Notes: generated by a model from the letters alone, not told the origin. A stretch of 64,000 bases of DNA from Phoronis australis (GCA_002633005.1 NMRA01000030.1:1599015-1663014), one strand, 5' to 3'. Numbered from the stretch's first letter, positions 5,361 to 41,700 are shown. A program made the numbers and translations.

Positions 5361-7708
5361 TCAAAGCTGTTTCATCCAATCGAACGCCCAGTCGGCAAGT
5401 CCAGCTGGCAAAACCGAGAGACAAAAAGCAAACTTGGCTCCAGAGCCAACCAAGTAGCGCCTGCGTGGATTTTTTGACAGAAGAGCGTGGATGTATGCGT
5501 CGACAACCAAGTGCGTTTTGTCAGATGCCGCCGCCATACTCTTCCGGGCGAGTTCTGCCGCTGCGATAAAGAAGGTAAAATTCTGCCAAAGGTTATGTTG
5601 GACCTTATCGACAAGTCTGTACATTTAGCAAAATATCTTCCGTAGCATTAGGTTTATGACTCCATGCCAGTCTGCTATACATTAGGTCTCCTAGTGACCA
5701 TGCTTTTTAAAGAATATTTAGTGAGAAAAAAGTTACATTCATGACAAACTAATAGAATCGATAATATGACCGTCAGACACAATTGCGTACGAAATCAATA
5801 CAAATGTTCAAGACAAAAGATCAAAAACACTGTTACAGTTTCCTATATTACCGTTTCGTTTTCGATGTATGCAAGTTTCAACTACTTTCAAAAAAGATAA
5901 ATTTTTGATTGCCCCTCGTACATAAGCGGAACATTTCAGAAACGATTCCTAATAGCAATTTGTAGAGCAGTGCGCATTTAAGTAAGGTATATCTCAAAGT
6001 TTCACTTGGCATTTCTGAGATGGGGTGTTACGAAGTTGTCCAAAATTGACATTTTGTAGGGTCCTACATAACTTTAAAAATACCATTTTTTAAATTTCAG
6101 TGCAGATCTCTAGATTTCCTCTTCTTTGATCAAGCATACTATCCCTAAAAATTTAAAAAGAAGAATCACATGTTTTCTCAATAACCTGATTGCCGTACAA
6201 TGACTAAATTTAAATAGAGCGTAACGAGTACTGACGAGTTGCAGATAAGAGCTACTTTATTAACGATAAGACCTGTTTCTCACTGAGGGAGGAAGCACAC
6301 ACAGTTATGCTTACCCTTTGCAGCTAATACCCGATCCTTCTCCTTCACTTCAGGGGGCGCCTTTTCCCAAGCAGTAAGCACACCTCGCTCAATTGCCTCT
6401 GGCGTGGTTATTGGCGTTTTAAACACGCCAGGTTCAATTATGCAAACTTTGATCTCTTTAGTTTCTCGCCTGCAATAAACGCTTTGGCATTAAAGTACTT
6501 GCAGTGGTGTTTTACTGCCTTACTCAAGACTTGCTAGGAATATCGTTGGCATCGTATTACTATATCGACCTACAGTGCTCTTCGCATTTTCTTTACAATT
6601 ACTGACAAAGTTAGCTTTAATGTAATACATATTAGCGCAACTAATGCAACCGTTGCTCATCATGGGTATTAGCCATGAAGCTAAAATGAATACCGGTACC
6701 ACAACTCTTCTTTTGTGACTTCACCAAAACTTCGTTCTGTCATCTGATAATGCACATTCGGTATATCACTTGAATCATAAAGGCGGTATTCAACTAAAAC
6801 ACTTGTCATCAGATGAGACTTGTGATTTTCGGTGTGTAGTCGAGTAACTCGCCTTTTTTAAGGTTAGCCATACTTACCTGCTTAGTACGCTTTGTAACGA
6901 GTTATCACATTCACTAGAACAGACTTTTAATATATGACCAGGATTTCAGAGCATTATTTCATACCAGACAATTAGATGGGAAAGACAGTGTTGATATGTA
7001 TTACTCAGACAAATCCGAGTTAAGTGTCCTTTGAAATAGGCCCAAAGTTCGCATGGACTATACTTTTGATTCATTGCAGATCTAACGCGACCAAATAAAC
7101 TAACAGTGCAAGGATAAAAGATGCACACGTTTTGTGCATAGTGTAAATACGGGAAGGCTTTTGCAAGTTGGATTTTGGTTTCCGGCGACCAATCGTACTC
7201 ATATAGAATGCTTTAATGATAATACGAAGGAGTCCTATATTCGAAGTTTGAAGTAAGTCACCTGAGTACATCCGAAAATGCTTCCACGGCGCATTTACTG
7301 ATACAGTAAGGGGAGTTGCCCGGCATGGGAAACAACCCAAGCATACTGCTCATATTCACTACACGCCCTCCCTCTTTACGGACTAGTTGCAGAAACGTTG
7401 TGGTGACGTCGATCGTTCCGTACATATTGACGTTCATGCATAGCTCGTAATCCTTCTTGGTGAGCCATCTGGTCAGGCCTATTGTAGATACACCGGCGTT
7501 GTTGACAATTCCCCACAATCCTGAGTAAATGTAAGATGGAGCGGGGTAAAAAGAGCAATGATTTCGGTTCAAGCATCACAGTACGAGTGATCTACATAAC
7601 CAGAAAGAAGCACGTCCCTTTGGGCGCAGAGTTTAGTAGCTTAGGAAATTTTCAATAGACGTCACTGAAGTCACAGGCGTCCTCTTCTGATAATCTCCAA
7701 TACGCTAT

Positions 7709-7774
<66 letters not shown>

Positions 7775-10700
7775 TTATATTTATATTTATATTTATATTT
7801 ATATTTATATTTATATTTATATTTATATATACTACAAGGTATGACACTCGAGACAAGTATTACGGTGCTTCACTTCAGCCGTCCATATCAAACACAAAAC
7901 AGGGTTTCAACAAACCATTAGTTGTTGTTCTTTCCTCTAATACCATTCACGGTGTCCTGCTCCAGCGAGATCGCAACAAATTTGCGGTCAAAGGACAAAA
8001 ATGTTCCCAAAAAGCCCACGCATCTGTCCTCCTTTGACGGTTCGAGGTCTAGGACGGTACGGAATTATCCGATGAGTTACGGATGGACGGCAATTGCCGG
8101 TTCATCACGGAAAGTTACGAACTGGTGTGGCTAAGCCAAGCATGGAGTTATGGACGTCGTGACACTCCGTGACAAATCGGAAATTGCCATACTGTCCTTG
8201 ACCTCGAACCGTCAAAGGAGGACTGATACGTGGGCTTTTTGGGAACATTTTTGTCCTTTGATCGCAAATTCGTTGAAATTCATAGACAAAAACATGAATA
8301 AATTTCTTAAACATTGTCCGATTTTGATGATTCTTTTTTTAATTTGCACAACTAAATAACTCTTTGCATATGCATATGAGATTCAGTTTGCATTTAGTAA
8401 GTGATCAAAAAAATTATTTGAGACCGTAACACAGTCAACTCTCGAATAGAAACCTTGATTGTGATTTAGCCGATTGTATTGGGAAAGACCAGAAGCTGAT
8501 GACGCCTGTGACTGAAGTATGTATGTAACCCTACGGAGTTTGCTTCAAGATGCACTTCACCGAATTTACACTCAGGCTAAAAACAAAATTCGAGTTAGGG
8601 CTTTTACTCATACACAGGTGGTCTCAAGTTTTCCTTTACCCTGAAAGGGCTTATTTTCTGTTACCATAAAGAACATACGGACCCTCAACTGGTAAAAAAT
8701 GCACCGGAATAGGATCGATATTTTCGGGGTTGGGCAACTATGAAATTAAAAAATGGCGCAGAGAATTCCATTCAAAAATTGGATCAGTCACGCGACGCAA
8801 CAGTCACCATTTCTGTGAGTACATAACTGATCCTAATTAAAAACTAAGTTAGTATTTTTGATATGAAATTAGTTATTTAAGCACTTTAATATACTAGAAA
8901 TATCTTAGGCGATCGTGAAACCATGCAAACGCATGCACGGAAGATTGAATTTCTTACCTTTATGTGATCTGCACGCAGTATTTGTCTAACGTCAAAACTT
9001 TTATAAACAATAAAGGGCTCGGTAATTTTTGAGTTGCTGATACTTGAAAAATCACGCGTATCTAAGTAAAACACATTTTAACCAATCGTGAATCCTATCA
9101 ATCATGCGCACAAAAAAGGGGTTGACGGTCAAAGAGAACTTCAGGCGTACCTGCATGCCCACATGTGCAACACACCGAATGCAGCTGTGACAGTTTTGAC
9201 TAATATCAAATTAAAGCTCGCATACTGTAAGTGCTACAATCATCATCAACAGAAACAGTACACTCTCAAAGGGCACAGCAGGCACCTTTCTTTCAGGTGA
9301 GTAATGGCTCTGTAGTCTTTCCTCACTCATAGATGCCCGTGAAGTTCCTCAAACTTGTCAAAGCGTTTGGCATTCGCACTAACAGCTCGTTTCTGCGAGT
9401 GTGCAACCTATCCCAGCGCTCGACACCGAGCTTGACGCCAAGTCGCATTTGGCGACCGAGAAAATGGGACAAAAGTCCACTAAATCAGCGCAAACGCGCA
9501 ATTCACAGAGGTGCTCCCGTTTTCTTTTATACCGCCCGCCCTTTTGTTAGCAAATGGTCCACAACGTCGGGAATTTGAGCCCCCCATATCGAAGGCTGGG
9601 TGCGCGCATGTGAACACGCGCGTATTTAGGGTATGGGTGTGACTTTTGGGGAGTAGTTTTGACGAATTTCACTTTTTAGGTTGCCAAAAAGATGTACTGC
9701 CAAAACAGCTCTTTAGAGTGTATAAAAATAGGGTAAGACAGCGCCGGATTTATAGGGAGACAGTGGCGCAATCGTCCCGGGCCGGCCCTCCGAGAGGCTC
9801 TATCATTAAAAACCGGAACAGGAAAGACAGTATTTAAATCACCGGTTGACCCTTCAAGAGATGACCTCCTTCAAGGTTTATATACGATTTCAAAAACAAC
9901 CAGGAAAAGAAAGTAAATCGATTCTGTCGTTGGCACCCCCATCCGCAAGTAGAAAGGATATAAATAAAAACAGGAAAATTGTGGCAACGGATCAACTGAA
10001 GGGTCTCCTCCTACGGATGTGGCCCTTAAATATGAACAGGTAATTATGAACAGAAAAAGAGCATCAGCGACCCTCTGCATCAGGTGGAATTCAATTTCAA
10101 CAAAATGAAACAAGAGAGGAAAGGATGAATTCAAAATACGCTTTGCTATAGAGGAGGGACCCCTCCGGATAAACACAGTGTCATCTTAAATGTAAAAAGT
10201 TGAGCCCAGTTCTAAGAAACTGGCTTATGTTCATTTTGGTCTTAAATCTAAGGTTATTTCGCATTCCAACAATCTTAGCTAAGTCTGACTTAAATTTCTA
10301 TCTTAACTTTGAGTGGAGTATCACTTTGTCTTAAGTCGATCTTATGTTTGTCAAAAAGGGCGCCTTTTACATTTGTGAGCGAAGATAATCCGACACAAAG
10401 TTTATCAAGATCGGATTGAATTTGATTTATTTGATGAGTGCTTTAGAAAGGAAAGGGCTACAGTTGGCACACTGGCCACTTGTTTGGGAAATCAATTAGA
10501 ACCGGAGACAGAGGAGATTCATCGACAACGGAGCAACAACAAGCAGCTGCGTTGAGACTACGTATCCGACAGTTTCCTAACTGTTGTCGGTGACACCGAG
10601 GGTGTCGGCAAATCAATCGTGTCAAGCACAGTCACGAAAGTTACAAAATTTCTCCCGACCTCTCGCTCCACAAAGTGGCCGATAACTTCGATCTCTACCG

Positions 10701-12382
10701 ACCGACAATTTCATCAAGTCGCTGGTTTTCCCCAGGTAGATGCAAAACGTGATGGAGTGGTAAGCAAAAACGATAACTATGAGTACGATTGTAAGATACT
10801 GGTAATTCCACTTGTAGATTGTATTGTTCTAAATTCACGCAATTCGTACATGTAAGTACATTCAGTTTTAGCATGTTTAAATAGTCGACATAAAGTTGAT
10901 AACCCGGGCTCAAAACTAGATAGCCTTGGTACAAAGCTGTATACTAAATACTTAATACAGCTTTGCGCCGATGTGGATAAAAAATGACCAGATAAAATAT
11001 GACACAAAATTAGTAGTGTTATTAAAAACTACACACTTATTTGAGTAAATAAATTTATTTTTTGGTTTTGGAAAAATTGGCGTTCTACCGTTATTCTGCT
11101 GCTAAATTTGTGGAGCGATCTTCTGCATCAGTTTTCGGCACCATGAAATATTGCGTCACCTATTGGCAAGTTTCTTTTTTCGCCGATTCTTCTATCAACT
11201 GTTGTTCTTTCACGGGGTTGCGTACACGTCACGACAAATTATTGGAACTGGTTTCATTTCATTAGAAGTTTTTAAAAATTTGATACCAGCAAACCGAATT
11301 TCAGAAGAAATTTTGCTGCTGCCAAGTTATTATCATCTCCCGAGAGATGTCGCAAAAACATAGGAAATGGCGCGTGCGAGAGTATTGTTTTTGAAACGAC
11401 GACATAAGTTTTCTTTATTAGAAAAGGCGGAGGATTACGCAATAAAATGACGTTCATTAGATTGTTTTTCACTTAAACGGCTTTAACGGGCGAGGTGAGT
11501 GTCGGTTGATTCCCAGATTTTGCATGCACCCCGTCCGGTCTGTAGCTTTACATGTTGATAATACAAGTTTCACGGCGAGGTGACGAGCAGAACTACCCTG
11601 GCTGTGTGCAATTTTGGGGTCTACGGAAGAAATACACATTATTGGTACCTAGCTGTATTTTGACGACAGTCTTCATACAGCTATCTGGTTGGCTAGGTGC
11701 GCCCATGGAATCGGTCGTCAAAAATTCACCCATGGTGCATGCACGTGCTGGACTAGGAAAGAATAATGCATTGAGCTTTGACGGATCACACATGATGAAA
11801 AAGCCGGAAGTATCGGCATTCCTAACGCAAAGTTGCAATTGCAGTGTAAGGATATCTCAACTGGGGAAATTTAGGCGCGTACTAAGATACGTGGGTAACC
11901 TACATTGTACACGCATTATTTCATATTTACGTTACCGTCAATTTTTGTTGTTATAAATATTAAATTACATTAAGTAAAACTCAGAATTCCTCACCTGTGT
12001 TTTCTGGCAGCAGTTTTTCCACGTGATCCTTTGCGGCAGCTAGACTTTCCGGCTTGGTGACGTCCAGTTTAATAGCAGTGCATCTACGCGATGTAGCGAT
12101 ATTCAGCTTTTCCAAACCGTCATCCGTGAGGCATCCGGCTATCACGCCACATCCTAAGTTATCGAGATATTTAACCAAGTCGTTTCCAAATCCACTGTCA
12201 CACCCCGTCACTAGAATATATCGGCGCGAAAGGTTTGCGATGAATTCGTCTTTCCGCCACCAAAGGTAGAGTGGAAAGGCAGCAGCGCTGACTAGGAGTA
12301 GAACAGCACCTATTGAAGCTGCAGACCCTTCGGTGTTCAATACCCAGTCTTTTAACCCTGCCACACAAGCCTGTATCGTCAT
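5361..12382 (-). CDS. SDR9C-family short-chain dehydrogenase/reductase (RDH16/HSD17B6/BDH1-like), paralog A; complete, 4 coding exons, ~333 aa
   Basis: Exons 11995-12382, 7262-7520, 6315-6469, 5361-5560 (388+259+155+200=1002 nt, all GT-AG, phases consistent). TM segment, TGCDSGFG, VNNAG, YCISK, IEPGVFKT, ALLSKNPRRRYLVG C-terminal motif typical of SDR9C. Confidence 0.93.
5940..6170 (+). repeat. Old interspersed repeat fragment (second copy ~32540-32780)
   Basis: Shared blocks AAAGTTTCA..CATTT.TGAGATG..CCAAA.TTG.ACATTTT.TAGGGTCCTA.ATAAC at both loci. Confidence 0.5.
7707..7830. repeat. Compound (TA)n / (TTTATA)n microsatellite
   Basis: Directly visible. Confidence 0.97.
7835..8278. mobile_element. 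Fold-back MITE-like repeat, copy 2
   Basis: ~110-bp inverted arms 7972-8083 and 8176-8276 (CAAAGGACAAAAATGTTCCCAAAAAGCCCACG vs CGTGGGCTTTTTGGGAACATTTTTGTCCTTTG). Confidence 0.8.
10202..10911 (+). mobile_element. Internally deleted PIF/Harbinger element with degenerate Harbi1-like transposase fragment
   Basis: TIR-like GAGCCCAGTT..AACCCGGGCTC; frameshifted remnants AALR..SFLTVVGDTEGVGKSIVSSTVTKVT..FHQVAGFPQV resemble the Harbinger HTH/GFP motifs. No clean TSD seen. Confidence 0.7.
10921..11695 (+). mobile_element. Non-autonomous TAG..CTA DNA transposon (AcademH-like), uninterrupted ~775-bp copy in SDR-A intron
   Basis: Termini TAGCC..GGCTA, each followed by an AGCTGTAT-n-ATACAGCT hairpin; reverse-complement homologous to 13020-13760 (ORFs 11062+ and 13444- are homologous). 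No TSD on this copy. Confidence 0.8.
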
Positions 12383-13759
12383 GTCTCTGGTTAGGAAACA
12401 AAGACAGAGAGAAAAGAGTTCATGGTGTATGCGCTTTCACGTACACGTGAATCAGGCTCGATCTGTATTCAAAAATCTTTAGTAAATATCAAAAAAATAC
12501 GCTTGAAATGTGTAGTAAAAGGTCTTGAAATCGACAGCAAACGTGGCTCGATCAAACAAAGACAAACGTGCAGAGGGTCTTATTTAATGGCAAAAGAAAG
12601 CGGGTGATTACAGTAGGCTAAGCCTATAACCTGGACAGAGCAGCTGCTCTCCCCTGTCTCTAGAATTGGAAATGGGGCGTGCGCGTCACGAGCGTATTCT
12701 TTTAAAACGACGACATAGCTCTTCTTTGTTAGAAAAGCCGGAGGATTACGCATAGAACTGACGTTTATTAGATTGTTTTCTTCTTAAACGGCTGTAACGG
12801 GAACGGTGAGTGTTGTTAGATTCCCAGATTTTGCATGCACCCCGTGCGGTCTATAGCTCCACAAGATGATACAGGCTTCACGGCGAGTTGGGCAGAACTA
12901 CTTTGGCTGTGTGCAATTTCGGGCTCTATGGAAGAAAAACACACAGTGGTACCTAGCCAGCCAAGTAGCTGTATGAAGACTACAACTCGGTACCACTGTG
13001 GGTTAATCTTCCATAGACCTAGCCTGCCAGCTAGCTGTATGAAGACTGTCGTCAAAATACAGCTAGGTCCCACTGTGTGTATTTCTTCCGTAGACCCCGA
13101 AATTTCACACAGTCTGGGTAGTTCTGCTCGTCACCGCGCCGTGAAACTTGTATCAGCATGTAAAGCTAAAAACCGGACGGTGTGCATGCAAAATCTGGGA
13201 GTCAACCGACACTTACCTTTCCCGTTACAGCCGTTTAAGTGAAAAACAATGCAATAAACGTCATTTTCTTGTGTAACTCTCCGCCTGTTCTAACAATGAA
13301 AAGTATTTCGTCGTTTTGAAAAAATTACACTCGTGTCGCGCGCACGCGCCATTTCCTAAATTTTTGCGACATCTCTCGGGTGATGATGATAGCTTGGCAG
13401 CAGCAAAATTTCTTCTGAAATTCGATTTTTCGGTATCAAAATTCTAAAAACTTATAATAAGTGAAACCAGTTCTGACAATTTGTTGTGACGTGTAAGCAA
13501 GCTCGTGAAAGAACAACAGTTGATTGAAGAATCGGCGAAAAAAGAAACTGGCCAATAGGTGACGCAATATTTCACGGCGCCGAAAGCCGTCGCTAACGAT
13601 CGCTCCACAACTTTAGCAGCAGAATAACGGTAGAACGCCATTTTTGCCAACAAAGTTAAATAATTTAGTTTACTCAAGGAAGACTGTAGTTTTTAATGAC
13701 ACCAAATTTGTGTTAGATTTTATCTTGCCAGTTTTTACCCACATCGGTGTAAAGCTGTA

Positions 13760-15404
13760 TAGTCCGGATACCTATCGTCGTCAGGCTCCAAAGGTCGTCC
13801 GCCATCTTCTTTCGCGTGCAGCGCAGCCACGCGGGACTTAGCTTTCCAATTCGAGGAGGCAGTGTGGCCTGGTTGATAAGTGCCCGCTTTCTTTACTCGA
13901 GGTCGTGGGTTCAAGTCCCACCAGGTCACACTGCTAAACCCTTGAGCCAGGTTTCTAGCTCCTCAGCTCGGTTTTAACCATATATCAATAAAGCATAAAA
14001 ATATTTCCAGGTGATCATCAGTGCAATGGGCCCACATGCGAGGTCTGCGCACGTCTGGTACAACGTGTATCAGACCACCTGCAATTATTTTTTTTAGCTT
14101 TCCAATTTGGAGTGCTCGTCTGCGCGTTAGGTACTAACCTCTCTGGAGAAACACGCATGGAATAACTGAGACTAAAATTAATGCATTTACCGACTGTTTT
14201 TTTTTTGAGACCACTTAAAAACTTGTAGATTTTACTAATGCACTTTTTTGCTCATTTTCAGAAGATATTTTCGAAATTAAAATTTCTTCAGACGGAACAA
14301 AAAGCAACTCAGGGATTGTTTATGCAATGTATCTATTTGTCCCAGGCACTAACCAAAGCCTGTTAGGCCAAAGGAAAAACGCAGCAGACAAATGGAACAC
14401 GCTGGGTGCTTAACAGTTTCGGCCCACGCCTTGGTCATCAAAATATTGTCCACTTGTTTTTTTATTGCAAAACAAAGTACTGAGCTCAAAATTTATGTTG
14501 CATTTTTTTATTAAAGCATTTTGAATTTATTTGAAGAAAATTAAAATACTTGAATTGATAGAGAATGGCCACCAATAAAGTATATCATTGACTTTATTTC
14601 ACTATTATATTGCATACAGTGTAATTGTTACATACAACACACCATGATATAATCAAAAATAAAAGAAGAGATTGAGCAATAAAATTCAAATGCGACTTGG
14701 GTATTTATTTATTTATTTATGATTGCAAAAGCCTGTTAAAGATGAGAAAAAATCAAACAATACGATTATGGGTAATTTATTTGAACAATTGTATTGAGGT
14801 TCAATGATCAACTTGCGCCGACAAAGTCTCAAAGGGTTATAGTTCTGTTCTGGCTGACAAGGTGTTAACAGAGAATGAAGAGAAACTGAAACGAAAAAGT
14901 TAGACAGCAAAGATAAGTGGTGTTAAGTACAACAAGAGCAAAAAGTCAAATAAAGAGGTCACAAACAGAAAATAAGTCTAAGTTCTATCTGGAATAAAAC
15001 AATCCAGGGCTCAGCCGCGATTTATTTTCCAGAACTGAAATTATAAATCAATTTTAATCGATTTAAAAATCGATATACTAGTAGAGCAGTTTGTGGTTGA
15101 AGTAGAATTGCTGTAAACCACTTTCCACTATTTTCTTGGCCTTTTTCTGTGTGGTTTTCTGTTCTTTCAAAAGGCGGCAGCATATGACGACCATAGGAGT
15201 TATTATAAAATGGCTGCCGAAAAGCAATGCACAGTTGAACAACTCGGCATAAGTAAAAGAAAACATTTGAATCAACGAATACTATATATTTGTGAGAGTA
15301 AAATCAAATCCTATTCATATCATAACTTTGAAGTGGAATAATTGGGTGAGTACGACAACAAGCCGGTTTTATGCTTAGGCGGACGACCATTGGGTTTCCG
15401 AGTA
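13760..15404. mobile_element. Unclassified ~1.65-kb TIR element D inserted in the terminal hairpin of copy C
   Basis: Left end TAGTCCGGATACC..GGTCGTCCGCC vs reverse complement of right end TACTCGGAAACCC..GGTCGTCCGCC; splits C's AAAGCTGTA|..ATACAGCTTT hairpin. TSD ambiguous (TA, or TGTA/TATA). Confidence 0.6.
13853..13970 (+). mobile_element. tRNA-derived SINE
   Basis: A-box GTGGCCTGGTTG, B-box GGTTCAAGTCC, then SINE-body-like CCCTTGAGCCAGG; not a complete tRNA. Confidence 0.7.
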
Positions 15405-15515
15405 TATATTTATATAGATACAGCTTTGTACCAAGGCTACCATAGACCCCGAAATTGCATACAGCCAGGGTCAAAGTTCTGCTCGTCACCTCGCCGTGAA
15501 ACTTGTTTCAACATG

Positions 15516-17783
15516 CACATATTGGACCTGGGAAAGTCCAAATGGCCAAACAAGAAATCAAATTGATTTTATTTTAACTACAGACAAAAATATCGTCATG
15601 AACTGTGAAGTGTTAACAAATGTTAACATTGAAAGTGACCACAGAATGGTTAGAGCAAAAATAAGAATCAACGAAAGACTACTAAGGCTTAAAAAAAATA
15701 CAAAGACTGAGACCATTGAAGGCAAACACAGAACACATGGAACAATGCAAAGAGGAATTTCAACTGGCACTACAAAACAGATTTCAAGCTTTAGAAGAAG
15801 AGACTCAATCAATAGATACTGTTAACAAAATCCTAACAGAAGAAATCAAGATCCTACATGAGAAAAAAGGAAAGACAGGCACAAGTCTATCACCTGAAGA
15901 CACTAAAATTCAACAGATGTACACAAAAAGAAAAGAACTGTACAAGAAAGACAAAAAGACAGAAAGAGAAAGAATAGAATGCAATGAACTTAACAAAACA
16001 GTGAAAAATGAAGAGAAATAGATCTTGACGAAAAAGAACAAAGATGATAATGAACACAATTGTAAAAGGAAAATTACCAAAAGAAATCTCCAAGCAAGGA
16101 AATAAAAAGAAGATATCAAAAATGCGAAACTCTAACGGAGAAATAACAATCAACAGAGAAGAAATACTCAAAATATGTGCCGATTTCTACAAAATTTTGT
16201 ATGAGAAAACGATGAATCCACCAGAAAAGATGGGAATCAGGAATCTAGACACAGAACAAGTACCACCTTTTACTTAGGAGGAAGTAGAACATACTCTCAG
16301 AAGGATGAAGAAAAGAAAGGCAACAGGAAATGATGATATTACAAGCGATATAATTTCGGCAGGAGAACAAGAAAAAAAAACAAATACTTGACAAAAGCAT
16401 TCAATGTAATTTTAAGGACCCAAACCATCCCAGAATGCTGGAAAGAAGCAAAAATAATAATATTATTTAAAAAGGAGACCGAAGTGACATAAAAAACTAT
16501 AGACCCATAAGCTTATTAGCCCATACATACAAACTGTTCACAAGGCTATTACAAAATAGAATGGAGAAACAACTGAATGAAAATCAACGCCGAGAACAAG
16601 CAGGGTTTAGAAAGAGCTAATCAACAACAGACCATCTGCAAGCCCTTGGACAAACAACTGAAAAATGTAACGAATTTAACCTGCCACTGTGTGTTGGTTT
16701 CATAGATTATGAAAAGGCTTTTGATTCAATTGAACACTTTGCCATCATTGAAGCCCTAAAAACATCAACATAAATGAAACGTATGTAAAATTCCGGCAAA
16801 ATATTTTTCAGATGCCACCGCCAGAATACACATCGACAACCACGTCTCTGAAAGATTCAACATAAAGAGAGGAGTTAGACAGGGAGACCCAATTTCACCT
16901 AAACTGTTTACATTGACAATGGAAGAAATCTTCAAATCTTCAGACCCTCAGAGGGGAATAAACATAGACGGAGAACATCTAACAGACCTAAGATTTGCAG
17001 ATGATGTTGCTTTGTGCACAGAAGACATAATACAATTAGAAACAAATTTAAATATACTGAATGAAGAAAGTAACAATATAGGATTAAAAATACACAAGGA
17101 CAAGACAAAGTAAACGACAAATTTTGAAACAGACGAACAAGTAATGGTGGAGAACAAGATCATTGAAAGAGTCACACAATACAAATACCTGGAACAAACT
17201 ATACAAATGGGAAACCGTATGACCAATGAAAAATAAATCCGAATAAGAGCTGGGTGGAGTTGCTTTGGAAAAAACAGAGAAATATTCTTAGATAAGAACA
17301 TACCCATATCCCTGAAAAGAAAAGTATTTGACCATTGCATCACCCCCACAATCACCTTTGGATGCCAAACATGGACCTTAACAAAACAAACAGTTGCCAA
17401 GCTAAGAACAACACAGAGAGCAATGGAGAGAAAAATGCTCGGAATAAAGTTACTAGACAGGATTCCACACACAGAGATAAGGGAACGAACAGAAGTCATG
17501 GACATAATCAAGACAATTCTGAAATTGAAATGGAGGTGGGACGGACACGTCGCCAGAGCACAGGACAACAGATGGACAAAAAGATGCACAGAGTGGCAAC
17601 CCAGATATGGAAAGAGATCAAGAGGACGGCCCCAAGCCAGATGGAGAGATGACTTCGTGAAGACGAGAGGCACAACGTGGATGAGAGCGACAAGAGACAG
17701 AACAAATTGGAAGGCATTGTCGGAGGGCTACATCCTGCAGTGGATGGACAATGCCTAGGTACAAGGTACAAGGTATAAGGTAC
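15516..17783 (+). mobile_element. 5'-truncated, frameshifted RTE-clade non-LTR retrotransposon
   Basis: APE C-terminus (WTWESPNG..IDFIL..SDHRMV), RT motifs YRPISLL, EQAGFR, FIDYEKAFDSI, GVRQGDPISP, LRFADD, C-terminal KWRWDGH..RGRP..RW; multiple stops/frameshifts; 3' tail of (AGGTACA)n repeats. Confidence 0.93.
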
Positions 17784-20700
17784 TTTTTACCCACATCGGC
17801 GCAAAGCTGTATATTTAGTATACAGCTTTGTACCAAGGCTAAGTGGTACCTAGCTGTATTTTGACGATAGTCTTTATACAGGTAGCTGGCTGGTTACCCT
17901 GTCTCAAGAGTTTTTTTGCTGAAGCGTAGACGAGTTGACATACTCGTGTATTTGAACGAAAGCAAAAAACGAGAAGGTTACTTTTTCTTATCACTTTACA
18001 ACTATTTGAAGAGACTGTAAAATGTGTGTAATACTCTTCTGTCGGTACGCGTGCACTTACAGATTTAAAAAACTGGATGCTAGTCGCGATCTCAAAACTT
18101 AAAAAATTAGCCTTGGCATAAATAGCACGAACTTGACGTGAATAATTGGCTTCTTAAAATCACTGGCGCTTGAATTTATGTGCTCTCCGATCACCACAGA
18201 CGTCACTCAATATGTTTTTTATATGGTTAAGAGTCATCTGAAAATTTGAGTTTTTATGCTTAAAATTCTATGCTGAAGCCTTTTATTGTTATCTCCTTTG
18301 TGTTGCTACAGATAACGAATTGTGACAAAAAAGTTGGATTCTCTCCAGTGGACTTGGCTTAGATCACCAACGTCTTAATGGGAATTATTCACCAGTATTA
18401 TTCAGAGATTTCACTGATATGATCCTATTATTTGCAGAATTGCTTGATCGCTTATTTTTAGTGTTTGCGTTACTGTCTAACTGTAAGAATTAGCCTACAC
18501 AATGCCTGTCTGACGTACATGTATTTAAGTTATGCAGTTGAAACGAACCAAAGACGATTTCGAATACGTTATAAAGTGTTTCAAACAACTGGCAAGAGAC
18601 GCGACGTTTTCTGGGAAAAAATTATTTTCCGGTGAAAATTCAACCGTTTGCGGTGCTTCTTCAATTATACCAAGTCCTAAAGAGCTTACCTTCAAAAGCC
18701 ACCTTTCACCAATATATGTTTTCCTAATTAATGTCCCGAGACTGGAGTCTCTGACTTGGCGTGCAGGATTGATGGTAGCACCGTTGGCCAATATCACGGT
18801 ATACAATGTAAGCAATCGTTTAAACGACTAGCTTTTTATGGTAATGCAATCCTCTGCTTTGTTGACTCAGCAATCAGCAGATTCGTGCCACTAGCAACAG
18901 CTAAAGTAATAGAGAAAGTTTGCTGAGTGAGAAAGTTACACAGGGAAACTGTCGGCGCAAAACGATAGTTGGTTAATTGATTATTAACGGTGACATCTAT
19001 TTATAAATCTTTAGGCCCTCGACTTTTGATACTTCAGAAAACAAAGTAAACAATGTCTCTGTGCAATACCATTTTTTCGCCCGTTCTCACATAAAGTACC
19101 CAATAACGGTAAAGATATAATTTAAAAGAAATATTAGATTTTCCATGAACTAAGCATTTGAAGTCATTCCTTTTCAGTGTATAGCAAACTATGTGCAATT
19201 GGCACCCTGGATATTCATTTTTGAGGAAGTTGTAACACTTTTAATTTTTACACTCCCCTCTACCATTTTGATAACAGCAACGACACCTCCGACGGTACAG
19301 ACCTAAAGATGTTTCTATTACTTCTAAAATTGGGTATCAACTTAATTTTAAGTCAGATGTCGTACAGGTAAAAACCTGTTAGTGGCACTATCTTGCTGTG
19401 TAATAGCGGTAAAGACATAGCGCTACAGACGTAGCATTATCCAGGTACTTTTTGATACTGGGGTTAGATATTATTTCATGTGTCAAAACTTCATCCAGGT
19501 AAAGATTGTAACTATATGTAATCAACTTATTTTGACACAATAAAAGTTAGGATAATAATATCTACTTGATCTGTAAAAACAGCGAGGATAGTAAAGGCAC
19601 ACGAAATGTAGGGCAGTTTGGAATTTTCTTACCTTTTAGGTTACGTGAGACCCAAAAAAGTTTGCAAATTTCTGCTTTCTAAAACTATATACAGCAGCGC
19701 CGATTCCGCCTGCAGGACCTTTTCCGGCTATGTGATTTTCGAGAAAGTACCATGCCACGTGTTAAGATTTTAAATCAAAAGGATCCCATGTAAGAGTTTG
19801 AAATTCATAATTGTTCTTGTACTGGCTGCTGGGACCATCAGAAACAAAATGTATGGTGTCGATTCCACGTGACCTGAGATCTCGTAGGACAGGATGCAAG
19901 TGGGCCCAAACTGCTGCGTAGTTGTGCCTGGTGTCCGAACTCATAATGCAATAACACCTGGTCAAATGTTTCCCATCTGTCGTCACAGTAGCATGACACG
20001 TGTGTAGGGAAACGTGCTCTGCTTGCTCCAAAATGCATAGACAGGACTTCAACTGTTACCTTACATTGATAATTTTCACTGAAATCAATCTGCAAGAAGC
20101 TCTCATGTTCTTTCAGCTTGAAAGAGCATGAGAGAGGTACTTTTCAGATGGGGAATCTCAGAAAATTGATGGTGAATTCGAAATTCTTGGTGCATAAGGA
20201 CTTTGAAATTTGATATTAGCAATAGTGTCCTTCTTTTCAATCTTCTTTGTCACTCTCATTTCCACTGCTGCATTTTGGTTCTTTGGTTTCCAGAACAGTG
20301 TTCCATTCACTATAGGAAATGTTATCGATTGACGTTGTCAGTTTTTTCCCTGTGTAGATGTTATGATTTTTGTTTTTGCAGTTCTTACATTCATACATGC
20401 ATCTTTGATTTCTTGTACAGCATACCAACCTTGCGATGAAACTTTTAAGATTGGGTGTAGCCAAAGGACCGTGTAAATAAAGTTTCGATGCTATTAAGTT
20501 CGGCGTTGCAAGTGTACATTGAATGCCACTGCGTCTCCGTTCTTGACACTTGGTGGTACAACATAAAATGGGCGTAGGCGGGTGAAGTTCGGATACGACA
20601 ACATGGTTCCAGGATTTTCTATATAAAACTCCTTAAACAAATTCCTCATTGTGTCATACAGAAACCGTTTATGGCGTTTGTCTTTGGAATGTGTCATTGT

Positions 20701-32700: not shown

Positions 32701-35700
32701 AAAAAAGCTTCATTTAAGAGAAAAATGGTTTTCAAAATCGCATTGACATTTCTCATGCATATCAGCACTGTATATTCATGAGAAATACGTGACACCCATG
32801 AACTGTCATTTGACTAAGAGGTCCCCGAGAGGGCCCCTGACCATAATTTAGAACAAGTAACACATAATCCCTAACAACTCCTAAAAACAGAATGCTGATG
32901 TCACTGTTATGTTGCTATCACATTTTTATTTAGGTTGTGCTCAGAGCGAAGTGCATTTTATAAATGGATGCATTACAGACTGATGGAAGTAGTATTCAAG
33001 AAAGCATGAACTGTACCTTCTTAATGAGACATGAGAAGAGGACTTTACTAAAGCTATCCTTGGCCTTTAAACGGTTGCACTCTGTGACATAATCCAGTGT
33101 GCTGGAATTCTCACTGCCCTGAAATAGGAAACATATGCAAAAGATCATATAAACAAACTTGTACTAACTAGTGATGACTTCCCATCCAAAGCACAATACC
33201 ATTCAACAATGATGACAACTGTGTCACACAATTACCACTCAGATGGACAATGTCAGCAGGTAATATTAAGTTGTGTAAAGACAATCCAGATACGACAACT
33301 GTTGCCAAAACCTGTCCAGCTGCTCACACAGTACAGTGTTCCACAAGTCAGTGAACACTGGTCTTCATAATTATCCACTTGTCAAGAAAAAAACACCAGA
33401 ATATGATAAAGGTCAAAAATGTGAATTCAAAATCATCCTAGTCACAATTTTCTTACACATACGACATCTTCAACCGAAACAATTTGCATTTTATAAAAGT
33501 TTTTTTACACAATGGTATTACTCACAATGTTGAGGTAGTTACCCTCCCATTGGCGACTGTAGCCCCAGTCCTGCCTTTTGCCAGTTAGCACTTCACCAGC
33601 ACAGATCTTGAGACGGAACATAGGCCAGGTATCACGGGGGACACCGCGAAGGATCATGTTGGCGCGCCACCTGGAGGCAAAACACTAGAATGAATGTCCA
33701 CAAGGATGGAAACAACTTGACCGTACAAATTATTTCACAGGAGGCCAAGACTGTTACTCCACTATTATAGAACAAATATCACGCAGTTTTATAATTCTGT
33801 CACCGTGATCATGTGCCATTGAACCATTATTGTTCATCAGCAGGGTGACACTCGTATTTGTTTTCATTTTCCACACGTTTTCAAGGAGTTATTCAGGATA
33901 AACTACTCATTTTCCATCACTTATTTTCTCATTGATTGTTGTCAAGCATAACTGCATGCAAAAAACTCATGTCATGACTCGATAAAATGAGTTTTCTCAT
34001 TGCTTTTTTAGTTTTTACGCCGTTTCCTTTTTCCCATCCCTGACAACATTTTCCTATAATCATATTCCAGCAAGAGTGAGAACCAAAACTAGTTCATCAA
34101 AAAGAGAAACTTCCATGTTGTTGTCTATCATACAGAATGAAGGGTTGAGGTTAGCTTTCTACAGGTTGGTTGCGAACGATTCTTTCTTGATACCTCCTGT
34201 GTGCCTTCTTCAGTTCTTCCACAAGACCCTCAAGAACAGCTGGTGGTTTAGGCCACTCCAGGCTCTTGCCATAGTCAGCCATCCTGCGCACGTTCTTGAA
34301 AACTTCAACTATCTCCAGGATGTACTGACGCAACTTATAGCGACGGAACCGTGCCATGATTCGGTAGATGGCTCGCATCCGCTTAGCACGTAGTCGTGCA
34401 GCACCCCCACGCCACATCTGCAGACAGCATTTATAAAGGAACTCATTAAGTCACCGCAGTCCCATCCACCTAACTTCTGCTTGTGCTAGGTACTGTGGAA
34501 ATGTAGCAGCCAAAGTCCTCCTGAATTATAATGTTTACAGTGAAAAGGTCTATTTCATAAAAAGGGACAAGGCTTAAGTCAGTCAGATTTTTTTTTCTAC
34601 ATCACATCGCAATTTCTCAATGAAGTTTGTGCACTGTAATTGTAAGCAATCACAGCATAGCAAGAACTTATAAAAACTGTCTTTACAGTATGCTCAGCTG
34701 AGATTAAGGATTCAAAAGCAAATAGTTGTGCAGAGAGGAATTGCAGACAAAAGATCTTCAAACCACTTTTCAAAAAACTGGTTTTGAACTACTATCATAG
34801 TAAAGTTATTACTAGTTGATTTTTTTGTATAATAATTACCCAAAATAAACTAGGATATCATTGCCTACTTGAAAGCAGAGCATATTGTAAGCACGTGTGA
34901 ATAACTTATTTTGACATAATTGCACATACTACCTTTTGCAAAAACACAACAATGGAGGGCACCACTTTGCCTCGCTCTTCCTCCAGTGTGAAGATAGTTT
35001 GTGGTGAGCGAATGAAGAGCTTGGTTTTGCCGAACTTGACATCATCGAGAAGATTTTTGGCTTGTAGGAGGACCCGGATACCATCCTCCACAGAACCACT
35101 GTAATTTGGCCACGTCTGCTGAGATATGCACTTGTACCTAGCACCAAAATACAGAAACGTCAAGTCCAATAGACATTCTCTGATATGGTGGCGACATGAT
35201 GACACACCCCTTGTCTGAATTACCGATAACTTTTTATAAATTCTTTGCCAACTTCATACCATAAAACAATCACTGTTGTGTAGTGGAAAAGTCAACAATT
35301 TCAAACCATCCAGTTATCTAGTAATGAAGAATTTGTTCTAAACAACTCTGCCCGTTTTGCACACCTGAATAACAAACTTAGGCAAGCGAAAGAAGCTTCC
35401 ACAATGTCACAATGCTAAAAATTTTCAAGTTTAGTATTTCCTATAGGCATACAGAGGTTGTCTTAAATAAATTGTTTTTCACTTGGGAGACAATTATCAT
35501 TTTTATTAAAGAGTATACTCCGAGTGTTAACAAAGTTTTTTGCAAATTCAATGTTCATTGAAAGCCTGATAGGAAATAGTAAATAGGTCATCACCACAGC
35601 TGCAGGGTCACTGAGCTCTGCATGTTATTCAGAGAACCAGCAGCATGCAGGTCCTGAATGGCCAATGACTCTTTAATGTAAAGTGAATCCTTTACAGGTT

Positions 35701-38700
35701 CTTTACAGATTATAGAGAACATCCCACCTCAGACAAAAGCAATGCCTAGACATTATGTCAGTAACTATCACCAAGCTAATTCAGTCGGTGTTAACTACAA
35801 AGAACCTGCTCAGTGACACTACAGCTATGGTGATGACTCATTTACTATTTCCTGTCGTTAATGTTCCACCCATTTCACTTCATGGATGTAACCAGACTCG
35901 TACGTTGTCACTTGATGACTGACTGCCTGTATCCTGATGATGTCTAATGAATAGAGGAAATGTCAAATTAGTATGAACCTTTTCGTTTGTGCGGCGATTG
36001 TCAGTTTTTGATTTTATTATGCCCAAAAAGTGATGTAATTAATTTAAAATCTTCTCCTGTTTCCAAAATCATCTCAGTTTCTGCAAGTCAAATGTTTGTA
36101 TGAATTCACATTTTTATGTGCAGAACACAGTCTCCAATATGCACTTGATGGACAGTGTCAACTCACCTGTCCAAAAACCTTTGGTAATGAATCCTATAGG
36201 CAAAGCCAGCCCTCCTCACTCTTACATTCTCCACAAGACCAAGGTACAACACCTGGTGGCGACATCTCTCATCATTGAACAAAACTGGGGATTTCTCCTC
36301 GTTGGGCTTAATACAGCGCACATAGTGCGGCTCCTGAAGGGACAGAAGAGAGCATGGAGCATTAGTAGCTGTTGTAACTCACAGTTATTGTGCCTGGAGT
36401 TATAGTCTTAACAGATATCATAGTTACTGAAATTACTGGAGTTATAGCAGTTATTGTTAGTTCATGTCAGTATCTTCTGCTATGGAAAATGCCTTCCAGA
36501 TAACATATTTTACTTCGCTAAGTTCTTAGAAAAGCGTTTTCCACAAACTACATCAAGGCCAAGATTGTGTTTTAAGTTTGCAATAAAAAATACAAACGCC
36601 TATTAACCATTAAAAATTTCACTCCAATGGGAAAGAGCATTTCTTTTCTTTCACTGATGGACATTTGACATCTTTTAAAGCTTTTTTTTGAAAAATATGG
36701 ATTGCGCTACTTCAAAATGGGTTTAATAAGAGAGCAATTAAGAAGCTAGCTACCTTTGATGCCAGCGTATCAACCAGTTCTATGATGGAGTTCTTGAAGT
36801 TGGTGCCCGCAGTTAGAGGGCGCTTAGTGACCTCCGTCACATCTTGGGCACCCTCAGGCCACATACCACTGATCATTTCATTAGAACTGAAACACACAAA
36901 CACAGACTTATATGCACAAGATCGGCAAAATTACACACTAACATGATGAAAAAACATTATTTTATTCTTTCAACTAAATTACATAAGTCTGGTTTTTTGC
37001 ACAAACCAAAGCATGATTTCAGTGACATTTAATTACTTTTAGCACACTGTTGCTGGAGTCAACTACTTAATAACAAAATGATTGCCGAGACTCAGTGTGA
37101 AATTATTGATAATAATTATCCATTCAATAATGTCATGTCCTCACACAAAACAACTTGTCCTGAACATGTAGAGCTTGGCAAAATGGTTGTTAATTATTTG
37201 GACTTTTCCTGCCATGTTCAGGATATTTCTCAACATTAAAATGCAGATTGCCAGTAGCGGATGGCATAAGTTCATAAAGTGATCAACAAAACATGAACGT
37301 GTTAAGGCTATTAGATGATTTAGCATGAGAAAAAAGGCAAATAACATAGAAAATAAATCTGAAACTAAATAAGGCGATCCAGATCCTCCCAAGGATACTA
37401 TTGTTTCATGAAATGTAGAATATAAATCGGTAAATAAAACAACAAGAAAGGGTCAACTGAAATTTGAAATTTTCGGATGTAATAACTTCCTTTGTCAACA
37501 GAAACAGAAACAAAGGCACCAAATGCATGTAACTGCACCAGAGCTCAATTGATAAGTACTTTTGTCTTGTCGGCAGGTATATAACCGCACTGTGAATGAT
37601 GTCTGGGCAACCTACCCCACCTCGATACAGAAGGGGTGAGATGCCGTGCCAGTGTCACCCCACCACAGAGCAATCAGCAACCATACTCTAACTAAACTTA
37701 GCGAGAACTCGTTCCAGGAGCAACGTGTTCAAGGCTATCTGGTATTGAGAACGTCATTTTAGATAATTCAAATTGCAACCACTTTATACCTGTTATAAAG
37801 AAGTCGCTTGAAGTCCTGGAACAGTGTGTCTTTGTTCTTGTCCAGGAAGCCAATAACACTGTACAATACATCGCCAGCGTAGTGCTTGACTCGGAAGTCC
37901 TGGTTGTGGGTCATGACTTTATCAGCTGGACTTAGCTACGAACACAGCACACACGTGACGGTCATAAGATACAGAAGAAAAACACTGCTGTGCCAAATCA
38001 CATGTCCAACAGATGAAAACCAACAATTGGCTTTTCATTACTCAGTATAACTGCAAGTGTGCAGTAAATGTTGAGCTTGATGCCAAGAATGTCTAAAGTT
38101 GGGAAACTCAGGACGTCTAAAGTTGGGAAACTCAAATATCACAACAAAGCTGTTACATTGAGCAGAACTGTAGAATGGGGGGTTCAAAAGAAAAAAATTG
38201 ACAACACAGTAAAAGGTGATGGAAAATAACTCCTTTCAGCAAAGTGAAGCATAAATTTGCTTCATAATTTACATAATTCTTCAGAGGAGATAATCACTAC
38301 TTTGCATTTGCTGCTTTGTGCTAGATGATTCATTATTTTCTATTGCATACTCTATTGCCTTGACAATTAAACAAAGTGACTTATTCATCAAAACATCAAA
38401 TGGACACACCACAAACAAGCTATTCATAAACAATATGGACTGCCTGGTGATTTACTCAGACACTCAGTTGAACAGGTGAATGATTTGATTAATTAAAACC
38501 CAGCAGCTGTCTAAATCAGCATTAAGGCATAGCTGAAATTGAAAATTGAAAGGTCTGGAACTGAATGATAACAATACCTGTCGACTGTCGTAATGTTCAT
38601 TCTGAGCCAGTTTTTTGTCCATGGCATGAAGAAACATCTAAAAGCAGAAATAACAACTGCTACACAAAAGTAAATTGGTATTTCTAGCCTCAAGTCACCC

Positions 38701-41700
38701 TTACCATTACATGAGAATACATTACATGTTAATATATACGGTCAAAATGGTATTTCAATCGGATTGATTCCAGGTGGGTAGTTTTACCCCTGTAAGCTTT
38801 AAACACTTGCAAAATATAACCTGTGTCTGATCTTTGATTATTATTTAAAGCCATGCACTCAGTTATCCTTTATTGTCACAGGAGTATAAGATAATACAAT
38901 AATTGTGCAGAGAATCCACCGTGTGCTAGAAACTGGGTGGTAATTCACAGTACATCTTCATTTCTTAGATTCTAACAACAATGTGAAAACCGATTTAAGT
39001 TGCTTTACTGATAAGAAAAGGGATCAGCATGCAGTCAGTTCACAGGGCTTAGAAACAAAAGTATGAACTGTCTGGAGACGAGCTGAATGCTAGGGGTGTA
39101 ATCTTTAAATACAGTACTGATGTCACGTAGACCATAACAAAAATTCAACATAATCCACCATAAACAGATCACTGTGTGCAATTGAATAGTAGCAAAATCC
39201 AGCAAGTTACCAATAAGTTCGTTCTTCCTGGGCTAATTTCACATAGTAGCATGTACTTGGATGTAACTAGACAATGTAATTCATGAACTGAGGTCTCTCT
39301 TCTCCTTAGTACATCTAATTCAAAAAAACTAGGAACCTACAGGTTTCATCTTCCATTTCAAGTTTCATATTTATAGATAAAACAAGAGCAACACGGAGCA
39401 TTGAAATGCGCCCACAACTGTACCGCAAACGGCGTACTTCTGGGATGTTTATTTGTATCATTAGATGCCACATAAAACATTGAAACCATCCACATATGGG
39501 AGGGTAGCGTCGTCTCTCAAAACTTTTTGCCAAATTTCATGAAAATCCATCAAAGAACTCCAAAGGTACAAAGGCAAGCATAACAATGAAACTACCATTA
39601 GGAACCACAGCAGTAGTCAAATCTGTCCATCTGCTGTCAAGTTAATAGGAATACAACTGAAAAATTTCGAAAAAAATCTTGCAAGGGGTTAAGGAGGTAC
39701 AGAATGCATATGAAAAAATGTCACTAGGGGGCACAAAAGAAGTTGGACCCATTTGAAAATCAACACTAGTCATGCTCTTTTCAGTAAAACACATCAGCTA
39801 ATTTTCATAATGATCCTCTGCGTGGTTTGGCAGACACAGTAGATTATAAAAACAGACTACGAATAATTAAAATGGCCACTAGCTGGTGCAGAATACGTCG
39901 AATCCATCATAAAAAGGAAAGGTGCTGTCGTCTTCATAATAAACACTTCTTTGCCAAATTTCATGAAAAGCGGCAAGGAACTCTGAAGTTACAGAGGCAA
40001 ATGGAAAAATTAAAATTGCTATAAGGGACCACAGCTGTCAGTAGTTGGATTGGTCTCAAATTTGTTGTCATATGTTGCCATCTCCATATGAACACATGTA
40101 CTAAATTTCAGAAAGATCTTGCCAAAGGTAAAGAAGACACAGCCGTGGACGCAAAAATATAATTGCCACAAGGGGGTGCCAGAGTAGTTGAACACATCTG
40201 AAAATCAACATCAGTCTCTGTCTTCTCATCACATCACAAGCAAATGATCCTTCAAGCGGTTTAGTGCATGGAGGGCTTGGTATCAAAAACAAAAAATGTT
40301 TTAAATGGTCAGCAGGTGGCGCAAAATATATCAAATCCACCCTCAAATGAGTAGGCGTTATCGTCCCCTTGATAGAAACCTATTTGCAAAATTTCATGAT
40401 AATACCGAATTTATTCGAAAGTGGGAATCTGTTGACTCTTTAATAGAGACCTATTGATTAAACTTCATAAAAATCTGCTAAGGGGTTTTGAAGATACAGC
40501 TTACAACAAAAAAAATAAAACTGCCACTAGGGTGCACAGCGGTAGTCGGATCCATCCTAGTGTTGTTGTCCATTGTCAACTTTATATAAATACACTTGCC
40601 AAATTCAATAAAGATTTTACAGATTGTTTGGAGATACAGCCACAAAGCAAAAATGTCACCAGGAGGCACCACAGTAGTCCGAGTCTTCCAAAACTCATCA
40701 TCAGCCATCCTCTTCACAGTAGAAAAATAAACACCAATTTTCAAAATCATCCTTAAGGTGGTTTGGTTGATTGCAGGGCAGACGCCAAAAACAGACTAGA
40801 AAACACTAAAGATGGCCACTAGATGTTGCAAAACACGTCAAACTGAACTGAAAACAGGAAAATGTCATCTTTTCTTTCGTAGAAAGCTATCTACAAAATT
40901 TTATGAAAATTCGACAAGGAACTTCAGAGAAACAGAGGAAAACGGAAAACAATAGAATTTCCACTAGGGAGCACAGCATTCATCGGAGCCGTTCAAAAGC
41001 CGTCGTCATCAGTTGTCAACTTTGATACGTTTGCTAAATTTAATAAAGATCCTGCAGAGGGTTTAGGAGATACAACCGTGGGTACAAAAAAACTGCCACT
41101 ACGAGGTGCCACAGTCTAAGTCAAATGAAAACCATTGTCTGCAGGCATCTTCACTGTAGGAATATAATATATAGGTATATGTATATGCTAATTTTCAAAA
41201 TCATCTTTAGAGTGGTGTGGCTGATAGAGGGCGGGTACCAAAAACACTCGAAAACAGTAAGAAATGGCCACTAGGTGGTGCAAAATACCTCAAAACCATC
41301 CGGAAATGGGAGGGTAGCGTCATCTCACCAATAGATATCTATATGCCAAATTTTATGAAAATCCATTGAGGACTTTTGAAGACACAAACATGAAAGTAGT
41401 CAGATCCACCTGAAAATTCGCTCGTGCCGTCCTATCCATGAAAGGAACACATGAATTGTGCAAAAATTTATAAACATACATCAAAGGGTTTTGGAGATAG
41501 GCAGCGCATGCCGGATGGGCGCTGGGCAGACGCCAGACAAACAGAGATGACGGCATAATGCACCCACATACAAATATGTGGGCGCATAATTATGCACGCA
41601 TTCATCTTATAAAATATGGAATTGCAGTACATTTCACTAATACCTTGTGGAGTGGGTACAAAAGAACGTGTCTGTCAGAAGAGAAAGACAGCCAGCTGTT

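Follow-up and report, generated by a model that had tools for sequence, protein, structure and literature searches.

A triple nest of a probably AcademH-type transposon family in Phoronis australis, and a possible bias towards insertion in or beside its own copies

The window analysed here is a 64-kb stretch of Phoronis australis DNA in which three copies of one DNA transposon family (A, B and C) lie each inside the previous one, close to a fourth copy that stands alone. The stack sits next to an exon of a short-chain dehydrogenase gene. Its features, including target site duplications (TSDs), are listed below, with positions counted from the first letter of the window.

10921-11695, + strand: lone copy of the family, 775 bp, non-coding, TAGCC..GGCTA ends, a hairpin inside each end
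11984-12382, - strand: first coding exon of the short-chain dehydrogenase gene (adh_short, E 4.8e-07)
12652-12660, + strand: left TSD of copy A, CCCTGTCTC; right TSD at 17897-17905 (+)
12661-17896, + strand: copy A, the outermost; its family DNA is confined to 12661-12953 and 17842-17896
12945-12953, + strand: TSD of copy B, AGTGGTACC; second copy at 17842-17850, abutting the right hairpin of A
12954-17841, - strand: copy B; right end at 12954-13019 and 15440-15515, left end at 17784-17841
13011-13019, + strand: TSD of copy C, CCATAGACC; second copy at 15440-15448
13020-15439, - strand: copy C, the innermost, almost complete (about 775 bp, interrupted by a foreign insert of 1.64 kb)
13762-15402 (boundaries approximate), strand not assigned: TATA-flanked insert of 1.64 kb, unrelated to the family, in the loop of the left hairpin of C
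13852-14093, + strand: SINE-like insert inside the 1.64-kb element, with a T-rich tail and tRNA-like boxes recognized by eye only
15516-17783, + strand: 5'-truncated, broken LINE of 2.27 kb with a short-repeat 3' tail, in place of the interior of B

Exact 9-bp TSDs flank all three nested copies, and the repeat was present at a length of 9 only when lengths of 6-12 were tried. B is inverted relative to A, and C is co-oriented with B; the order of insertion is A, then B, then C. A first-pass annotation of the window had reported this nest, and both its coordinates and the three exact duplications were confirmed, with BLASTN tying A, B and C to the lone copy. TAG..CTA pairs with exact 9-bp flanks are not unusual in random sequence (mean of 0.66 per shuffled window); B and C are significant because their ends match the family ends, and not through TAG..CTA and a 9-bp flank alone. 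By eye, the three empty sites had no target motif in common beyond a 3' YC. Neither a TSD nor a TSD partner was found for the lone copy.

In this intact copy, AGCTGTAT and ATACAGCT form a hairpin at both ends, and only 5-6 terminal bases (TAGCC) are perfectly inverted. The end motif TAGCC-n-AGCTGTAT-n-ATACAGCT occurs four times in the window, a number reached in 0 of 100 shuffles. When six ends were folded, five gave z-scores of -2.1 to -4.3; the sixth, the right end of B, where an 11-bp deletion breaks the hairpin, gave 0.03. Once B and one TSD are subtracted, what is left of A is 339 bp long, a TAG followed by family positions ~437-775. It lacks positions ~4-436, hence the left hairpin, and this left part was most simply lost after insertion. 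B retains ~190 bp of family DNA (~58 bp of the left end and 133 bp of the right), with ~575 internal bp gone, and C agrees with the majority of reads at 33 of the 36 sites checked. The family had been described as hairpin-ended with TAG..CTA termini, which is accurate for both hairpins of the lone copy and for the terminal letters of B, C and the lone copy, but not for A, which ends in TTA and has no left hairpin, nor for the broken right hairpin of B. Pairwise identity among the four copies is 82-86% over the main aligned parts, and the short left end of B matches the lone copy at 93%. BLASTN at E<=1e-3 found the family nowhere else in the other 57 kb of the window.

The stack totals six elements, three of which are unrelated to the transposon family. 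The LINE, which we take to be RTE-like, retains a reverse transcriptase remnant (RVT_1, E 1.5e-14) at 16778-17110. The 1.64-kb insert in C has an imperfect subterminal inverted repeat; it was considered as a further element with a 9-bp TSD and rejected, its flanks repeating over at most 5 bp. The SINE-like insert has a 14-bp direct flank (13838-13851/14094-14107), and no tRNA was found in it, either as an ARAGORN tRNA gene or as an Rfam tRNA match at E<=0.1. Three unrelated elements share the stack and the window was chosen out of a large scan, both of which weigh against a bias of the family towards its own copies. The dehydrogenase exon gave one protein match, at 43% identity. Its ATG lies 279 bp from A, with the stack upstream. 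Because an acceptor-like sequence, a pyrimidine tract with AG, precedes this ATG, the stack likely lies in a 5'-UTR intron of the gene rather than in its promoter.

TAG..CTA ends are typical of Academ elements, and AcademH elements of animals are known with TAG..CTA ends, short terminal repeats and end hairpins, which the present family resembles. Long TIRs are usual in MuDR/MULE elements, with exceptions, and hATm elements have a 9-bp TSD and TAG ends, with an end motif that differs from TAGCC. PMC10045372 gives TSDs of 9-10 bp for AcademH and 3-4 bp for AcademX; the length attributed to AcademH in the first-pass annotation is thus borne out, and the 9 bp at all three nested copies falls within it. 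The element is therefore probably AcademH-type, being AcademH-like by TSD length alone. It differs from AcademH in that no transposase or helicase gene was seen: no Pfam match to either was found in 30 of the 46 window ORFs of at least 100 aa. The Repbase rule (PMC4455052) asks that the terminal 11 bp of a non-autonomous element align with a classified family. The features are those of a MITE-like element: 775 bp, non-coding, high copy number, TAGCC inverted ends and TSDs. A 9-bp TSD is shared with MuDR according to a passage of PMC3627910; the long TIRs are absent here, the terminal match extending over 5-6 bases only. The family may still belong to MuDR/MULE or to the 9-bp hAT group (hATm). 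Searches of metagenome and viral contigs returned 0 exact matches to the left-end motif. A loose end-hairpin motif was present at 35 metagenome loci, which we attribute to chance, since 0 of 35 had a BLASTN family match (E<=0.01) or a TSD partner.

We estimated the abundance of the family from sequencing reads. Of five listed runs of the species, four, from at most two samples, were aligned to the lone copy at 80% likeness; run X5 alone placed 28,760 reads on 10921-11695. The family makes up 0.11% of the bases read, and at most 0.25% if peak depth held throughout (raw-read Hi-C run, ~4% read). Peak depth corresponds to ~1,300-3,800 copies at an assumed genome size of 0.4-1.2 Gb. With uniform insertion, 1.6-4.7 simple nests and 0.001-0.004 triple chains would be expected per genome, and the probability of three more copies within 7 kb is ~1e-7 to 2e-6. 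Given the family share, four copies in 7 kb are therefore not a matter of uniform chance, for a locus that was picked from a large scan. That scan spans ~250,000 windows, and a few simple nests are expected per genome by chance, so that the stack might be a rare chance nest with no bias behind it, or a mis-assembly of similar repeats. We consider this highly improbable: triple chains should be far scarcer than one per genome, head-to-tail tandems in the reads exceed chance, and three independent exact TSDs with copies 82-86% identical are unlike the product of repeat collapse.

A hot spot or local hopping could also have produced the cluster. The site upstream of the dehydrogenase exon would then be accessible or tolerant, or the element would move in short hops, and the nesting would be a by-product. 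Three target sites within 370 bp (12652-13019), a non-nested fourth copy 965 bp from A, and the accumulation of LINE, SINE-like and TATA-flanked elements at the same place agree with this, and P elements have clustered hot spots and local transposition (passages of PMC1592238 and 10.1101/158386). The acceptor-like sequence before the ATG, however, suggests an intron and not a promoter, and nothing in the other 57 kb of the window matched the family at E<=1e-3. The relationship of the copies also counts against this explanation. Of 124 ungapped four-copy columns, 91 are invariant, 29 hold private differences (A 10, B 8, C 6, lone copy 5), two split the lone copy and C from A and B, and two are other; only the two split sites are common to copies. 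These private counts fit the nesting order and give little indication that one copy derives from a diverged neighbour, and the star-like pattern may also reflect old local copies. We also considered A, B and C as recent copies of the lone element and rejected this: its specific letter is present in C at 3 of 36 sites, in B at 0 of 5 and in A at 4 of 15. All 27 TSD bases match (27/27), which puts TSD divergence below 10.5% (95%) against 14-18% between copies. Had the 14-16% copy divergence arisen after insertion, such a match would occur by chance in 0.9-1.7% of cases, a figure to be read knowing that exact TSDs were selected for. TSD divergence below copy divergence leans towards the arrival of already diverged copies. 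Altogether we regard a hot spot or local hopping as a somewhat unlikely explanation.

The positions at which B and C landed bear on a more specific proposal. B entered A at the equivalent of lone-copy positions 11641-11649, abutting the TAG that opens the right hairpin of A, and C entered B, where the hairpin is broken, at 11618-11626, which lies 23 bp deeper in the element. Counted from the host ends, the targets occupy 46-55 and 57-66 bp; in full-length coordinates they lie at 46-54 and 69-77 bp. The first-pass annotation had placed both insertions about 55-66 bp from the right terminus of the host, beside the hairpin. Both are indeed right-terminal, but those figures are the outer TSD edges only, and contact with the hairpin holds for B and not for C. 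It had suggested from this that the transposase targets its own subterminal binding site. In such a scheme, transposase would bind the right subterminal hairpin of a copy already in place, and the new insertion would follow at a fixed distance from it. The geometry of B, with its TSD against the hairpin-opening TAG, is that of the 9-letter-spaced tandem at a true end, and the distances of the two targets from their host ends differ by 11 bp. Over six host-length assumptions, and with either end allowed, the probability of two hits in the right-terminal zone ranges from 0.005 to 0.15; a long B together with a full-length A, or a B that carried the LINE, gives 0.005-0.02, and an already short B gives 0.07-0.15. 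Helical-turn spacing was considered for the target distances, for which the points are too few. Against a fixed site stand the sample of two, the 23 bp between the targets in family coordinates, their opposite relative orientations, the broken hairpin of B, and the absence of any such joint from the best 15 of 505 joints in the reads. Of the self-targeting that had been inferred, the clustering above uniform chance remains, and docking at a set distance seems improbable to us.

The joints in the reads give a broader view of how the family ends are connected. All of the best 15 of 505 joints are skips and none is a self-insertion. Eight of these 15 connect the left hairpin directly with the right one and so produce minimal forms of roughly 60-85 bp (for example, the skip from 10943 to 11656 has 21 reads, and 5 contigs in X3), which shows that deletion forms keeping only the two ends exist. 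Among 12 of 279 rows, joins with intervening letters include three that connect the right end to family DNA. Two are head-to-tail (11695 to 10921 with a 9-letter spacer, and 11683 to 10921 with a spacer read as 1 letter), and the third, from 11695 to ~11552, lands 144 bp inside the element and could be a terminal duplication. None of the three falls in the 46-77 bp zone. They form a biased sample, restricted to joins with intervening letters, and are low-likeness contig joins. By chance alone, 0.35-2.4 right ends would touch family DNA, so that three joins have a P of 0.005-0.42; head-to-tail contact within 10 bp would arise at random only 0.003-0.009 times. In X2 and X4 (one sample), 90 contigs each run out of the element at 11695, and the flanks that follow are mixed (agreement 0.36); most visible insertions therefore lie outside the family.

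We favour, with a probability of roughly 45%, the reading that copies of this likely non-autonomous, AcademH-type family land inside or next to one another above chance, with no single fixed site. The cluster and triple nest exceed uniform chance and the head-to-tail tandems in the reads exceed chance, which makes a bias likely, as does, by analogy, the precedent of Castaway and Gaijin MITEs and of TSD-spaced P-element dimers. On the other side, the three right-end joins are non-significant at the upper assumptions, only the tandems are position-specific, and even these can be explained without self-attraction, because two insertions into the same hot site yield such spacing. In the model that we propose, an unseen autonomous partner would supply the transposase, which would mobilize the element in trans, would bind the AGCTGTAT pairs in the end hairpins, and would cut at the TAG ends and join them to a 9-nt staggered target. 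Transposase bound to a resident copy, or a target preference satisfied by the right part of the element itself, would then attract later insertions to within ~150 bp of the resident right end or directly beside it.

A stronger form of the idea, which we hold to be doubtful, is that the AcademH-type transposase captures targets beside the TAG-led end structures of resident copies and so builds stacks. True ends would then give 9-bp-spaced tandems and the inner right hairpin would give nests, in a manner likened to IS30 and IS911, two bacterial elements with end-targeting insertion. If this were true, it would amount to a self-homing route in a eukaryotic helicase-linked transposon. We know of no characterized mechanism of target choice in AcademH, and a bias that proved both real and end-directed would offer a clue to it; it would also be a safe-harbour behaviour, testable computationally on one good assembly. 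The locus itself illustrates cleanly how members of an abundant non-autonomous family come to lie inside one another, as is already known for MITEs and P elements.

No self-insertion of Academ elements was found in the titles, abstract openings and passages searched. The closest counterparts are MITE multimers of rice and maize (Castaway, Gaijin and Tourist), which share with this family short, non-autonomous elements and independent insertions into their own kind. According to PMC5172404, more than 10% of 6,600 rice MITEs are in multimers, and Castaway and Gaijin are reported to insert preferentially into themselves. These belong to other superfamilies in plant hosts, and the family described here differs in its 9-bp TSD, its perfect repeat of 5-6 bp and its end hairpins. 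IS-in-IS insertions matched random expectation (PMC12065110); PMC10799480, PMC10294476 and PMC5148889 also entered the comparison. The P element inserts into itself (passage of PMC4744444) and forms head-to-tail dimers with a TSD-length spacer, comparable to the 9-letter spacer seen here, through double insertion at strong genomic sites (passages of 10.1101/158386). It differs in its 8-bp TSD and in that its dimers are ascribed to such strong sites, not to attraction by a resident copy. Self-insertion as such has thus already been reported, in the sources cited, for rice MITEs and P elements.

Eight of the 15 best-supported read joints (505 in all; joins between positions of the lone 775-bp family copy in sequencing-run reads or contigs) fused the left hairpin to the right one, with breakpoints at 10921-10950 and 11649-11668. 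These fusions produce minimal family forms of about 60-85 bp that, as judged from the read joints, are present at several loci and may represent either the smallest mobile unit of the family or dead deletion products. In the contigs of one run, we also observed a head-to-tail family dimer (11695 to 10921) at roughly single-copy depth, the 9-letter spacer of which matches the target-site duplication length of the family.

At 54365-55792, a further TAG..CTA pair is bordered by a perfectly matching 9-bp flank but lacks homology to the family; such a pair is within chance expectation (mean of 0.66 per shuffled window). The window also contains the following elements and genes:

13762-15402, unclassified TATA-flanked element, inside the left hairpin loop of the innermost nested copy
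7974-8275 and 35568-35856, MITE-like inverted-repeat elements, arms of 110 bp and 49 bp
553-2628 and 7258-12382, minus strand, two tandem short-chain dehydrogenase genes

The TATA-flanked element carries imperfect subterminal inverted repeats (GGTCGTCCGCC), and the MITE-like elements are unrelated to the nested family. Diverged units of about 430-500 bp form an array at 39459-41499, to which short pieces at 49166 and 58576 are related; minisatellites (38-bp, 16-bp) and a tandem duplication of 882 bp, near-identical between its copies, occupy 42643-43061, 55200-55503 and 59389-60767.

Exon pairs of the dehydrogenase genes are 81% alike (555-819 versus 7260-7524). Two open reading frames within 34906-45838 gave weak myosin-head Pfam matches below the curated cut-off (E = 0.0046 and 6.6e-06), and on this sequence similarity are likely to be exons of a myosin gene.
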